Source: an uncultured Candidatus Binatia bacterium
GTDB lineage: Bacteria > Desulfobacterota > Binatia > Bin18
Direction: 5' to 3'
Length of the DNA: 64,000 nt
Assembly: GCA_965200965.1 (NCBI GenBank)
Contig: OZ241744.1
Coordinates: 608,001-672,000 of the forward strand
Positions 27,345 to 33,788 of this stretch are shown in pieces (within the stretch, counting starts at the first letter, position 1; each line of letters starts with the position of its first letter). The position numbers and the translations under genes were made by a program. The notes under the pieces were generated by a model, which saw nothing but the letters and a program-made list of their open reading frames with translations, was not told the origin of the DNA and made no database searches.

Positions 27345-27770
27345 TCACTTGCTACTACGGTCAAGCCTGCTGAATGTCTGAACAGCGGCTCGGGCGACCT
27401 GGATAAAAACCGGGGCAATAGCGGTCTGGAGGTCGGAGAGCGGAACCCAGCGTCGCTGGCGGTCGGTTTCATATGTCGGGCACTCGCCGGTGAGGCTGGC
27501 GGCAAAGAAAAAAAATCGTTGGACGGTCTTGTCGGCCTCATCCGGCAGTGCAAGTGCGGCTAACAGGCGGCCGACCTCAACCGTGTAGCCGCTCTCCTCG
27601 GCGCACTCGCGGGCTGCGGCTCGCTCGAGGCTCTCTCCCGGCTCAACGCTTCCGACCGGAAAAATCCAGGACCGGGGATGTTTACGGCTGGTGATCAGCA
27701 AGACCTCAGGCTCGGCCGTGGCTGTGGGTCGGCTGGCAACCACACCGGCCTTGGCTGGTGGGGGCGGCAT
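27345..27770 (-). CDS. NUDIX hydrolase
   Basis: WIFPVGSVEPGESLERAAARECAEESG Nudix box. Confidence 0.9.
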   Translation of the reverse strand: MPPPPAKAGVVASRPTATAEPEVLLITSRKHPRSWIFPVGSVEPGESLERAAARECAEESGYTVEVGRLLAALALPDEADKTVQRFFFFAASLTGECPTYETDRQRRWVPLSDLQTAIAPVFIQVARAAVQTFSRLDRSSK

Positions 27771-27773
27771 GGT

Positions 27774-28307
27774 CTAGTCGCGAGGCAGGTGCTCATGGCC
27801 CGGCTGTTCGTGGTGGTGCTGGTGTGAGGCCGGGCTGCTCGGGCGGACATCCCGACCGGGTTTCTGGCTCAGGCGCAGGCAAGCGAGAAATTTGACATTG
27901 GTGCCGGCGTCAAGCTCGCCAACCGCGCATTCCTCAACGTTGGGAATAAAAAAGCGAAACGGCCCGCCTTTTTTGGCCGGGAGCGGTCCGTCGCCCAGCC
28001 GATAGGCCACAATGGCGTCCTGGACCGAGGCGACCGGCAGACTGGCCGAAAATGTCCCGTCGCTGGATTCCAGGGTCATATACTGAAAGGCGGGAATGTG
28101 TCGCCTTCCGGTCGATTGGATGACACGTTCATGCCTCACGCCGTCTTTGGGGCCGACCCGGTCGAGCAGAGCCCACAGGCGAACATCGCCGTCCCAGCCA
28201 GGGACAAACTGCCCGATCTCGCCAACTTGGCCGGGCAGCCGGGTGAGGTCGGCAAAGCTGAAATCCTGCGGGCTGGAGACCTCGCCTTCTATGCGGATCT
28301 GTGTCAT
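27774..28307 (-). CDS. Small molybdopterin-oxidoreductase-like (SUOX-fold) domain protein with His-rich tail
   Basis: IRIEGEV..P..FS.ADL, PLPAKKGGPFRF, NVKFL; ends HQHHHEQPGHEH. Confidence 0.6.
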   Translation of the reverse strand: MTQIRIEGEVSSPQDFSFADLTRLPGQVGEIGQFVPGWDGDVRLWALLDRVGPKDGVRHERVIQSTGRRHIPAFQYMTLESSDGTFSASLPVASVQDAIVAYRLGDGPLPAKKGGPFRFFIPNVEECAVGELDAGTNVKFLACLRLSQKPGRDVRPSSPASHQHHHEQPGHEHLPRD

Positions 28308-28391
28308 GTTTGTGTCTCCTGCGGGGCATGGGTGTTCTTTGGGGGGCTTGTAGCAGGCAGCGGCCCCTCAGGAAGGCCGGCCCAAGCAGAC

Positions 28392-30593: not shown

Positions 30594-31886
30594 ATGAGTG
30601 CCACACGCGATCACCAATACGGATTCAGCACCCGTCAACTGCACGCCGGCCAGGGGCCCGAGCCCACCACCGGCAGCCGGGCGGTACCCATCTACCACAC
30701 CACGAGCTATCAGTTCAAAAACACCCGGCACGCAGCCGACCTGTTTGCCCTCAAAGAGCCGGGCAATATCTACACCCGCATCATGAATCCGACCAACGAT
30801 GTCCTGGAGCAACGCTTGACCTCGCTCGAAGGCGGGGCCGGTGCCTTAGTCACCAGCAGCGGGCACGCCGCCCAGATGATGGCCATCATGGCCCTGTGCG
30901 GCCAGGGCGACCATATTGTGAGCAGCAGTCGCCTCTACGGCGGGACGTATAACCAGTTCGCCCATACCTTTCCGCGCATGGGGATTACCACGACCTTTGT
31001 CGATCCGACCAGACCCGGGGAGTTTGCCGCCGCGGCGCAGCCCAACACCAAGATTCTCTACGGCGAAACCCTGGGCAACCCGGACATTACCGTCTTTCCG
31101 TTTGATGAGGTGGCCGAGGTGTCGCGCGCCTTGCATATCCCGGTTATGATCGACAATACCTTTGCCACGCCCTACCTGTGCCGGCCGTTTGAGTGGGGGG
31201 CGCATATCGTCACCCACAGCACGACCAAGTTTCTGAGTGGCCACGGCACGGCTATTGGCGGGGCGATTGTTGACGGCGGCAATTTTGACTGGCGCAGCGG
31301 ACGCTTCGCCAATTTTACCGAGCCGGACCCGTCCTATCACGGTCTGGTGTACGCCGAGCTGGGTCCCCCGGCCATGATTCTCAAGTCCCGGGTCCAGATT
31401 CTGCGCGATGTGGGCGGCTGCCAGGCCCCGTTCGATACCTTTACTACGCTGCTCGGGGTTGAGACGCTGAGTCTGCGTATGCAGCGCCATGTAGACAATG
31501 CCCAGCGAGTGGCCGAGTTTCTCGACGCCCATCCCGGGGTCAGCTCGGTCGCCTTTCCCGGCTTGGCCCATCATCCAGATCATGCCAAAGCCAAAAAATA
31601 TCTGCCCAGAGGTGCTGGCTCGATCCTGGGCTTTCGAATAAAGGGCGGGCGTGAAGCCGGCGAGACCTTCATCAACAGCCTCACACTCCACAGCCATGTG
31701 GCCAATGTCGGGGACGCCAAGAGCTTGGCCATTCACCCGGCCAGCACGACCCACAGCCAACTCAACGAAGCCGAGTTGCTGAGCGCCGGGGTCTCGCCCG
31801 ATTTCGTCCGGCTGAGTGTTGGCATAGAAGACCTTGATGACATTGTGTGGGACCTTGACCAAGCGCTCGCCGCGGCCACCCGCTAA
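30594..31886 (+). CDS. metY: O-acetylhomoserine aminocarboxypropyltransferase (sulfhydrylase)
   Basis: RAVPIYHTTSY, IYTRIMNPT, IDNTFATP, HSTTKFLSGHG, ANVGDAKSL. Confidence 0.95.
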   Translation: MSATRDHQYGFSTRQLHAGQGPEPTTGSRAVPIYHTTSYQFKNTRHAADLFALKEPGNIYTRIMNPTNDVLEQRLTSLEGGAGALVTSSGHAAQMMAIMALCGQGDHIVSSSRLYGGTYNQFAHTFPRMGITTTFVDPTRPGEFAAAAQPNTKILYGETLGNPDITVFPFDEVAEVSRALHIPVMIDNTFATPYLCRPFEWGAHIVTHSTTKFLSGHGTAIGGAIVDGGNFDWRSGRFANFTEPDPSYHGLVYAELGPPAMILKSRVQILRDVGGCQAPFDTFTTLLGVETLSLRMQRHVDNAQRVAEFLDAHPGVSSVAFPGLAHHPDHAKAKKYLPRGAGSILGFRIKGGREAGETFINSLTLHSHVANVGDAKSLAIHPASTTHSQLNEAELLSAGVSPDFVRLSVGIEDLDDIVWDLDQALAAATR

Positions 31887-31938
31887 GCTGTCCCGCGTAC
31901 TTCTTCTGCCTCGCCTGTACCTGAGACCGGGACGACCC

Positions 31939-33189
31939 ATGAGCAGCACCGGCTCCGTCGGCATGGTTCAGCCGCAAGAACTCACCTTTGCCCAGCAGCA
32001 GCCGTTTCCGCTTGACAGCGGGGCGACGCTCAACCCGGTGACCCTGGCCTATGAGACCTATGGCCGGCTGAACGCCGACCGCTCCAACGCCATTCTGGTG
32101 ACCCACGCGCTGAGCGGCAGTGCCCACGCCGCGGGGGACTCCGGTCCTGGGGAGAGCCGGCTGGGCTGGTGGGACGACTGTATCGGGCCGGGCAAGGCTT
32201 TTGATACCGACCGCTTCTTTGTCATCTGTAGCAACGTGCTGGGCGGCTGCTACGGCTCAACCGGTCCGGCCCAGCTTGACCCGGCCAGCCGGACACCCTA
32301 CGGCATGCGCTTCCCGGTGGTGACTATAGGCGACATGGTCCGCGCTCAGGTCCGGCTGGTGGATCACCTGGGGATTGACCGGCTGCTGTGTGTGGCCGGC
32401 GGCTCAATGGGCGGCATGCAGGCCTTGGAGTGGGCGGCCGCCCATCCCGGGCGCGTCCGGGCGGCCATCCCGATCGCCACCACCGCCCACCACAGCCCGA
32501 TGCTGATCGCTCTGAGCGAGGTCGGCCGCCAGGCCATTTATGCCGACCCGGCCTGGAATGGCGGCGATTACTACACCGCGCAGGTCAAACCCGACGCCGG
32601 GCTGGCCGTCGCCCGGATGGTCGGCCACATCACCTATCTGAGCGAAGAGTCCATGCAGCAGAAGTTCGGCCGGCGTTTGCAGGACCGCGTCCGCTACGGC
32701 TATGAGTTTCGGACCGAGTTTCAGGTCGAGAGCTATCTGAAATACAAGGGCAATAATTTTACCCGTAGGTTTGACGCCAACAGCTACCTGTACATCACCA
32801 AGGCGATGGACTATTTTGACCTGAGCGCCCGGACCGGGTCGCTGGCCGCGGCCTTTGCCAACTCTGCGGCCCTCAAATATCTGGTCGTCAGTTTTACCAG
32901 CGACTGGCTGTATCCGAGCTATCACAGCAAAGAACTGGTCAGTGCGCTGACCGCGGCTGGGGCCGATGTCACCTATCTGGATGTCCAAAGCTCGTGGGGC
33001 CACGACGCCTTTCTGATCGAAGTCGAAACCATGACCTATCTCCTCGGTAGTTTTCTCGACCGCCTCGTCCGCGCCGAGGGCATCGCCTTACCCGCCCCGT
33101 CGTCCCCCACGCCGGCCGGCGATTGCAAGAAGACCGAGGTGGCAGCTGTGAGCGCGCGCACTGCCCGCCGCCCCCACTCCGCGCTGTGA
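31939..33189 (+). CDS. metX: Homoserine O-acyl(acetyl)transferase
   Basis: HALSGSAHAAG, GWWD, GGSMGGMQ, RFDANSY, GHDAFL. Confidence 0.95.
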   Translation: MSSTGSVGMVQPQELTFAQQQPFPLDSGATLNPVTLAYETYGRLNADRSNAILVTHALSGSAHAAGDSGPGESRLGWWDDCIGPGKAFDTDRFFVICSNVLGGCYGSTGPAQLDPASRTPYGMRFPVVTIGDMVRAQVRLVDHLGIDRLLCVAGGSMGGMQALEWAAAHPGRVRAAIPIATTAHHSPMLIALSEVGRQAIYADPAWNGGDYYTAQVKPDAGLAVARMVGHITYLSEESMQQKFGRRLQDRVRYGYEFRTEFQVESYLKYKGNNFTRRFDANSYLYITKAMDYFDLSARTGSLAAAFANSAALKYLVVSFTSDWLYPSYHSKELVSALTAAGADVTYLDVQSSWGHDAFLIEVETMTYLLGSFLDRLVRAEGIALPAPSSPTPAGDCKKTEVAAVSARTARRPHSAL

Positions 33190-33788
33190 GCCCTGTCAGC
33201 CTGCGCTCCGACCTGCTCGTCATCGCCGACCTTGTTCCCGGTCAGGTCCGGGTGCTTGACCTAGGCTGTGGAGACGGCGCGCTGCTGGAGTATCTCGTTC
33301 GTGAGAAAGGCGTTACCGGCCGCGGCGTTGAGTTGGGTGAGAGCGGAATTCTGACCTGCATGCGGCGCGGTCTCAGCGTGCGTCAGGGCAATCTTGAAGA
33401 GGGCTTGGCCGATTATCCCGAGGCCAGCTTTGACTATGTGATCCTGAGCCAGACGTTGCCCTTTCTCGACGACCCGGCCATGATTGTGCAAGAGATGCTG
33501 CGGGTCGGCAGACAGGCGATTGTCAGTTTTCCCAACTGGGGCTATTGGCGGTGTCGGCTGGGGTTGCTGTTGACCGGGCGCATACCGCGGGCCTCTGACC
33601 TGCCCGAACACTGGCATGACGCGCCCCGCTGGCAGGCGTTCACGGTGGCCGATTTTGGCGACTTTTGTCAGCGACTAGGGGTCCGCATTACCCACGAACG
33701 CTATTTGGCCCACAGTCGTCGGCTGAAAAGTTTCCGCTATAAGAATCTGCGCGCCACCACCGCGGTGTTTACCCTGGAAAAATGCTGA
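33186..33788 (+). CDS. metW: Methionine biosynthesis protein MetW
   Basis: RVLDLGCGDG, FDYVILSQTL, IVSFPNWGYWR; follows metX. Confidence 0.92.
   Translation: MSPVSLRSDLLVIADLVPGQVRVLDLGCGDGALLEYLVREKGVTGRGVELGESGILTCMRRGLSVRQGNLEEGLADYPEASFDYVILSQTLPFLDDPAMIVQEMLRVGRQAIVSFPNWGYWRCRLGLLLTGRIPRASDLPEHWHDAPRWQAFTVADFGDFCQRLGVRITHERYLAHSRRLKSFRYKNLRATTAVFTLEKC

Follow-up and report, generated by a model that had tools for sequence, protein, structure and literature searches.

A conserved TusA-DsrE-MetE-barrel gene module in an uncultured Binatia bacterium and other bacteria, with a possible role in selenium or sulfur relay

We analyzed a 64,000-nucleotide stretch of an uncultured Candidatus Binatia bacterium (assembly GCA_965200965.1, contig OZ241744.1, positions 608,001 to 672,000; hereafter the window). 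It carries a gene for a DsrE-like protein next to a gene for a 527-residue protein in which one MetE-type zinc barrel, its homocysteine pocket intact, carries a tethered TusA-fold domain. These genes belong to a conserved unit, TusA1-DsrE-TusA2::MetE barrel, in which TusA1 is a second, free TusA and TusA2 is the fused domain. The module is present in many bacterial groups of several phyla. Each domain comes from a known family; no published description of their combination was found in open-access papers and bioRxiv (supplements outside the search). Tentatively, and at rather less than an even chance, we read the module as a salvage relay for selenium (less likely sulfur) acting at homocysteine on the zinc site. 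Loci and genomes are numbered with L and G. The core features are the following (positions within the window).

28392..29975, minus strand: TusA2::MetE-barrel fusion, 527 amino acids, module core
29727..29963, minus strand: TusA-fold domain of the fusion, residues 5-83; Cys20 codon at 29916-29918, second Cys is Cys58
29556..29726, minus strand: variable basic and proline-rich linker of the fusion; predicted local distance difference test score (pLDDT) <50 over residues 90-111
28392..29555, minus strand: single MetE-type barrel of the fusion; predicted zinc ligands H394, C396, E430 and C491; homocysteine-pocket residues S152, E203 and D339
28899..28901, minus strand: Cys359 codon, in a family-specific FMC loop that is mobile in the model; TGA here in two relatives
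30067..30429, minus strand: DsrE-like protein, 120 amino acids, C81xxC84, module core; Pfam DsrE

A preliminary description of this DNA had proposed a TusA-like domain joined through a linker to a zinc thiol alkyltransferase-type domain that lacks the N-terminal half of MetE. Pfam and an AlphaFold model bear this out. Pfam TusA matches the fusion at E 2.8e-6 (27.5 bits, slightly below the 28.6 cut-off) and Meth_synt_2 at E 5e-25, and the sole trace of the missing half is a weak 37-residue Meth_synt_1 match. The model was built from a 110-row alignment and has a mean pLDDT of 86, with a disordered linker and low confidence at residues 359-361. The TusA fold holds: residues 5-82 match Escherichia coli TusA (3LVJ_C) with a Z score of 13.2 and a root-mean-square deviation of 1.8 Å, and the domain matches YeeD at Z 12.1 (model alignment). 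Residues 143-527 match MesD (3RPD) at Z 36.8, with a deviation of 2.4 Å over 319 residues and ~30% identity. Cys20 aligns with the catalytic Cys of E. coli TusA at the start of helix 1. By its fold and this Cys, the domain belongs to TusA/SirA, and it may carry persulfide or perselenide. Fold, zinc ligands, and pocket residues place the protein among the MetE-type zinc thiol alkyltransferases, and it is predicted to bind zinc and to move an alkyl group to a thiol.

The roles of zinc- and homocysteine-binding residues in MetE-type barrels are taken from PMC7857596, the considered portion of which nowhere mentions TusA, DsrE, or OsmC. S152, E203, and D339 were placed by motif and alignment, and their counterparts in E. 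coli are S433, E484, and D599. Across a wide sample of 154 loci (some few genomes counted twice), the zinc set H394/C396/E430/C491 is present and unchanged in all 154, as is D339; S152 and E203 are each found in 153, the remaining locus not being covered. In a closer sample of the query and its 119 best matches (63-90% identity), Cys20, the carrier cysteine on which the earlier proposal depended, is conserved in 120/120 homologs. Cys301, Cys359, Cys396, and Cys491 are each conserved in 120/120 as well, and Cys58 and Cys220 each in 118/120. Three of these extra cysteines (C359, C220, and C301) had been overlooked earlier. The FMC loop bearing Cys359 is missing from the more distant core barrels in the alignment.

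Gene neighborhoods were compared across GTDB genomes and metagenomes (95 loci). Of the 70 loci that have at least 1.1 kb upstream, 66 contain DsrE, so the genes do co-occur in other genomes. The true start of dsrE in the window is the ATG at 30429, and its product has the motif C81-S-P-C84 (Pfam DsrE, E 9e-16). Both cysteines are kept in 79/79 neighbor DsrE proteins, and C81 aligns with the Cys of 3MC3. The Pfam match and the conserved active-site Cys place the protein, by sequence, in the DsrE/DsrF family. TusA1 often carries a Cys-rich N-terminal domain. Outside Binatia, 54 of 90 loci contain it, although many of these loci are truncated; in taxon samples, 13 of 15 fused-type loci have both DsrE and TusA1 within 1.5 kb. 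In the window genome this partner, which the earlier description overlooked, stands alone at C1:2523069-2523641, 1.9 Mb from the cassette. Its N-terminal domain has seven cysteines and is uncharacterized; in the ESM Atlas, the Cys-rich domain of TusA1 falls into unnamed clusters only, with a weak zinc-ribbon lead at 0.87. Carriage of the module is patchy (28/151 genomes of the window's class, Binatia; 26/201 Planctomycetota; 7/201 Burkholderiales; 4/301 in a phylum sample). The TusA fold, the conserved Cys20, and DsrE co-occurrence thus support the earlier suggestion of an undescribed carrier-coupled MetE-type system.

A sister clade of 26 loci (41-47% identity) has a free barrel, mostly after TusA1, DsrE, and a TusA2::OsmC fusion. 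In its other arrangement, the free barrel is followed by OsmC and rhodanese. The sister clade keeps position 359 and loses Cys220 and Cys301. In a quick rather than a fully searched tree, the fused-type sequences group as one clade with good support. The OsmC domain fused to TusA2 (L014:3523-4263 and sister-clade loci) mostly keeps the first OsmC Cys and weakly matches an OsmC-related (seleno)protein model. It has Ser at the position that we take to be the second OsmC Cys. A triple TusA::OsmC::MetE fusion, suggested by open-frame lengths, was rejected, since the two genes are separate. Directly 5' of the barrel in three loci (L008:5685-6980, L014, and L093) is a 432-residue protein or domain, in the same open frame in L008, for which no Pfam or NCBIfam match was found.

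Known systems resemble the module in parts. On PRK09121, presumably the MesD model, the fusion scores 111 of 392 bits, and no MesX was present among the scanned neighbors. The fusion shares with MesD of Shewanella (3RPD) a single MetE-type barrel, the same zinc and homocysteine residues, and the lack of a folate half (PMC7857596), but adds a tethered TusA domain, the Cys or selenocysteine (Sec) of the FMC loop, and DsrE and TusA partners. MesA, MesB, MesC, and split MetE also have a core barrel with the H-C-E-C zinc set, whereas the fusion is below all model cut-offs tested, archaeal methionine-synthase models included, and no corrinoid or Meth_synt_1 partner was seen in the loci (acsCD was not searched). 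TusA/YeeD and DsrE/TusD relays (3LVJ, YeeE-YeeD 8J4C, and DsrE-like 3MC3) share the fold, the position of the carrier Cys, and, as in YeeE-YeeD, the logic of an importer plus TusA; the module differs in having no CPxP motif, and its carriers are coupled not to transfer RNA thiolation, sulfur oxidation, or YeeE but to a MetE barrel. SdmABC of Methanococcus scavenges selenium by methyl transfer, with TusAD induced in the same condition (PMC11097638). The SdmABC proteins bear the annotation of uroporphyrinogen decarboxylases, whose fold resembles that of the fusion barrel; Sdm works through a corrinoid protein and coenzyme M (PMC11097638), whereas the module's carriers are fused or adjacent. The SAO selenoprotein system has a CxxC DsrE, and MetE and OsmC are nowhere mentioned in the considered portion of its description (bioRxiv 10.1101/2022.07.06.499078).

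The unchanged pocket, the lack of a methyl-donor partner among the neighbors seen, the invariant carrier cysteines, and the Cys/Sec loop residue together make a chalcogen relay the simplest reading. It is favored also by the recurring neighbors of the barrel, which are Cys carriers; the known cargoes of TusA-family and DsrE proteins are sulfane sulfur and thiosulfonate (PMC11073785). In the relay, for which we infer order, element, and reaction alike, the chalcogen would be handed from TusA1 to DsrE, then to Cys20 of TusA2, to Cys359, and finally to or from the zinc-site homocysteine. Selenium acquired or salvaged in this way would feed selenophosphate synthetase (SelD). The single most likely reaction, itself of low probability, would take the methyl group off a carrier-bound methylselenide and pass it to zinc-activated homocysteine, yielding methionine and carrier-bound selenide. 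It is favored by analogy with Methanococcus, which responds to selenium starvation by inducing TusAD together with an operon for methylselenide methyltransfer (PMC11097638). A near alternative would be that (seleno)homocysteine exchanges Se for S. A larger reading is a dedicated selenium-acquisition pathway, in which a selenite-binding ATP-binding cassette (ABC) importer or porin and a TusA/DsrE perselenide relay would supply a MetE-fold enzyme that frees Se at the homocysteine site for selenophosphate synthesis, this enzyme being itself a selenoprotein in some lineages; taken jointly, these claims are doubtful.

One link to selenium is the codon at position 359, which specifies Cys in 152 and is TGA in 2 of the 154 loci. 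The two TGA genes (L127 and L132) belong to different subclades of the OsmC-linked sister clade, and past the TGA their frames stay open for another 168 and 163 residues. Both genomes are selA-positive, and the window's own gene has Cys here. The TGA in these two distant relatives is likely selenocysteine, which would make this a family with a Cys/Sec pair. TGA was also looked for at the TusA, DsrE, and OsmC cysteines, and none was found. Among the first-found carriers, 16 of 18 have selA. In the window's class, selA is present in 28/28 carriers and 86/123 non-carriers (naive p ~2e-4), and in Planctomycetota in 26/26 carriers and 122/175 non-carriers (naive p ~2e-4); these p values ignore kinship, with 17 of the 28 class carriers in one family, the backgrounds are high (~70%), and the comparison is without a control gene. 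G776, a 97%-complete member of the window's family, has neither the cassette nor selA. selD lies within ~6 kb of the cassette in three different contexts (L041; L083; L074/G360/G504). That carriers are mostly selenium users holds; that they are only selenium users does not. The sulfur coupling proposed earlier is modified, as co-occurrence points to selenium at least as much as to sulfur for methionine synthesis.

Importers recur next to the module in relatives. One is a PhnCDE-like (HtxB-like) ABC transporter, whose binding protein is found in 12 of 47 loci with a long upstream flank. Another comprises a porin and a periplasmic transglutaminase-like protein and is found in 9 of 70 loci plus several Planctomycetota. 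The transglutaminase-like protein is highly conserved and often accompanied by a DcaP-like porin; its gene lies ahead of the cassette in Planctomycetota and Rokubacteria as well as other groups (L069:2019-3095, L134, L139, L140, and L141). Among solved structures, the ABC binding protein is by far closest to HtxB (5ME4; E 2e-81, next best 4e-25). In HtxB, F158, W52, and N128 block a third oxygen (PMC5700983). The binding protein keeps W52, R178, and D206, while N128 is replaced by Ser and F158 by His, as in three-oxygen binders (PMC5700983), and these replacements are conserved across the 12 copies. With Ser and His restored at the third-oxygen positions, a three-oxygen anion such as selenite fits, and the predicted cargo is a pyramidal three-oxygen anion (selenite, sulfite, or phosphite).

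Several points weigh against a selenium relay, the limits on the selA p values among them. A catalytic selenocysteine is a sign of redox chemistry at large and not of a selenium substrate, and although hairpins that could be SECIS elements follow both TGAs, they are no more stable than those in Cys-coding controls. The three-oxygen pocket suits phosphite or sulfite equally and argues against a methylated anion; moreover, the window genome has no match to the HtxB-like ABC transporter, nor to the porin and transglutaminase-like set. Both TusA domains are without the CPxP motif, which is replaced by C-G-[SN]-G in the fusion (C-G-S-G in the window's protein) and by C-G-[DE/x]-L in TusA1. In Burkholderiales, where one of the genomes counted in the background is flagged as unpublished (G341), selA is found in only 4/7 carriers against 51/194 in the background (p 0.09), and selD is not enriched (5/7 carriers against 151/194). 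All seven Burkholderiales carriers have selA or selD, which is uninformative given a selD background of 156/201. In the single-contig genome G349, selD accompanies the cassette but selA gave no match, and the carriers G306 and G314, of completeness not established, have neither selA over the cut-off nor selD. Finally, the relay reading is built from sequence, a structure model, and co-occurrence.

The view closest to the preliminary description is sulfur insertion, in which a carrier persulfide would displace acetate from MetX-made O-acetylhomoserine at the zinc site and the CxxC of DsrE would release homocysteine. We consider it unlikely. The amino-acid pocket is conserved, the TusA and DsrE cargoes mentioned above (PMC11073785) are of the right kind, a sulfonate-type ABC transporter adjoins in two loci (L011/L012), and rhodanese and OsmC adjoin in another Binatia family. 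In the window's family, metY faces dsrE in 12/16 loci, across two genera and despite differing downstream genes, and this link is therefore one inherited arrangement, fairly well kept. The facing metY-metX-metW cluster on which the earlier proposal rested is thus real in the window's locus, but it does not hold generally: of the 47 loci whose upstream flank reaches 4 kb, only 5 have it, and these are Binatia of one family. The adjoining MetY already does the job, and insertion of sulfur leaves the selA pattern unexplained.

A still less likely explanation is a back-up core methionine synthase, with a methyl donor not identified and with TusA and DsrE only repairing or regulating active-site thiols. 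MesD is the closest structure, all seven functional residues are kept, and core synthases often co-occur with MetH (PMC7857596). On the other side, no NCBIfam methionine-synthase model gives the fusion a score anywhere near its cut-off (at best 154 of 406 bits), and no corrinoid, folate-half, MesX, or methyl-donor gene was present among the 148 neighbor proteins scanned (of 310 cluster representatives). A search of the window genome for MesX (DUF1852) gave no match, but no control genome matched either. Of 49 carrier genomes, 45 have a MetH match, which exceeds the cut-off in 39, and the window genome has two further core barrels. One of these follows a presumably metF-like open reading frame; with it and a presumably dioxygenase-like frame, the barrel stands in a row at G000:C1:813852-816933. 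Importer linkage is also unexplained by such a synthase. Methionine synthesis as a role, suggested earlier together with a check for metE and metH, is narrowed by the full MetH of the window genome, and the module is likely not the cell's everyday methionine synthase. Use of reduced phosphorus is very improbable: the HtxB-like importer would bring in phosphite or hypophosphite, which would be oxidized by accepting carrier-bound S or Se. It would account for the kinship of the binding protein to HtxB, with W52, R178, and D206 kept, and for its recurrence in the 12 of 47 loci, yet the importer is missing from most loci and from the window genome, the chemistry needs no conserved homocysteine pocket, and the neighbors scanned included no phosphite-oxidation genes that we noticed.

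The remaining features of the locus are local. All seven open reading frames lie where the preliminary description had put them, and their Pfam and NCBIfam names across the locus are DsrE, TusA + Meth_synt_2, Oxidored_molyb, NUDIX, MetY, MetX, and MetW. The closest genomes (84-90% identity) have the same gene order as the window.

30430..30560, no strand: intergenic region; two conserved -10-like elements lie back to back in it, at ~30461-30469 (dsrE) and 30528-30533 (metY)
30561..31886, plus strand: metY, O-acetylhomoserine sulfhydrylase; divergent neighbor, linked within the window's family only
31939..33189, plus strand: metX, homoserine O-acyltransferase; local neighbor
33186..33788, plus strand: metW; local neighbor
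27774..28307, minus strand: small molybdopterin-binding-domain (Oxidored_molyb, sulfite-oxidase-like) protein with an in-frame 17-residue repeat insertion; outside the conserved module
27345..27770, minus strand: NUDIX hydrolase; outside the conserved module

The -10-like elements between dsrE and metY are putative promoters, and an Rfam search of 8 loci, this intergenic region included, gave no riboswitch match. Neighbors whose products form or consume homocysteine or related compounds occur in three lineages (metY, cystathionine beta-synthase, and a Cys/Met pyridoxal phosphate enzyme), in favor of a relay acting at homocysteine. The sulfite-oxidase-like and NUDIX genes, earlier counted as parts of the system, accompany the fusion in only 5 of 66 loci, all closest kin (3 of 16 loci of the window's family, all same-genus), and were rejected as module members on this narrow occurrence. 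The 17 residues in the molybdopterin-domain gene are missing from five kin and come from a ~51-bp hairpin repeat at 28085-28138, in frame, with 39 blastn matches in the genome; the copies at C1:2840687 and C1:3185167 also appear in frame in long open reading frames. Just beyond the NUDIX gene is a TnpB-like gene (Cas12f1-like TNB domain, 25863-27135), fragmented here and a single 486-residue open reading frame in L001. A Dyp-type peroxidase gene (33850-34773) is convergent with metW and syntenic in the five closest kin.

According to PMC11097638, a transporter dedicated to selenium is not known from any organism. Selenium uptake in bacteria and its delivery to SelD are open questions, for which the module offers candidates that are small and soluble: a binding protein, three carrier cysteines, and one enzyme. 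If a selenium relay is correct, it would be new chemistry for the MetE fold. Many genes now annotated as MetE make up a separate family, and even if the module does no more than relay sulfur or back up methionine synthesis, its barrel represents a new core MetE-like family across several phyla. The module is real and widespread and, through a chemistry that we infer, may be an answer to how bacteria acquire selenium.

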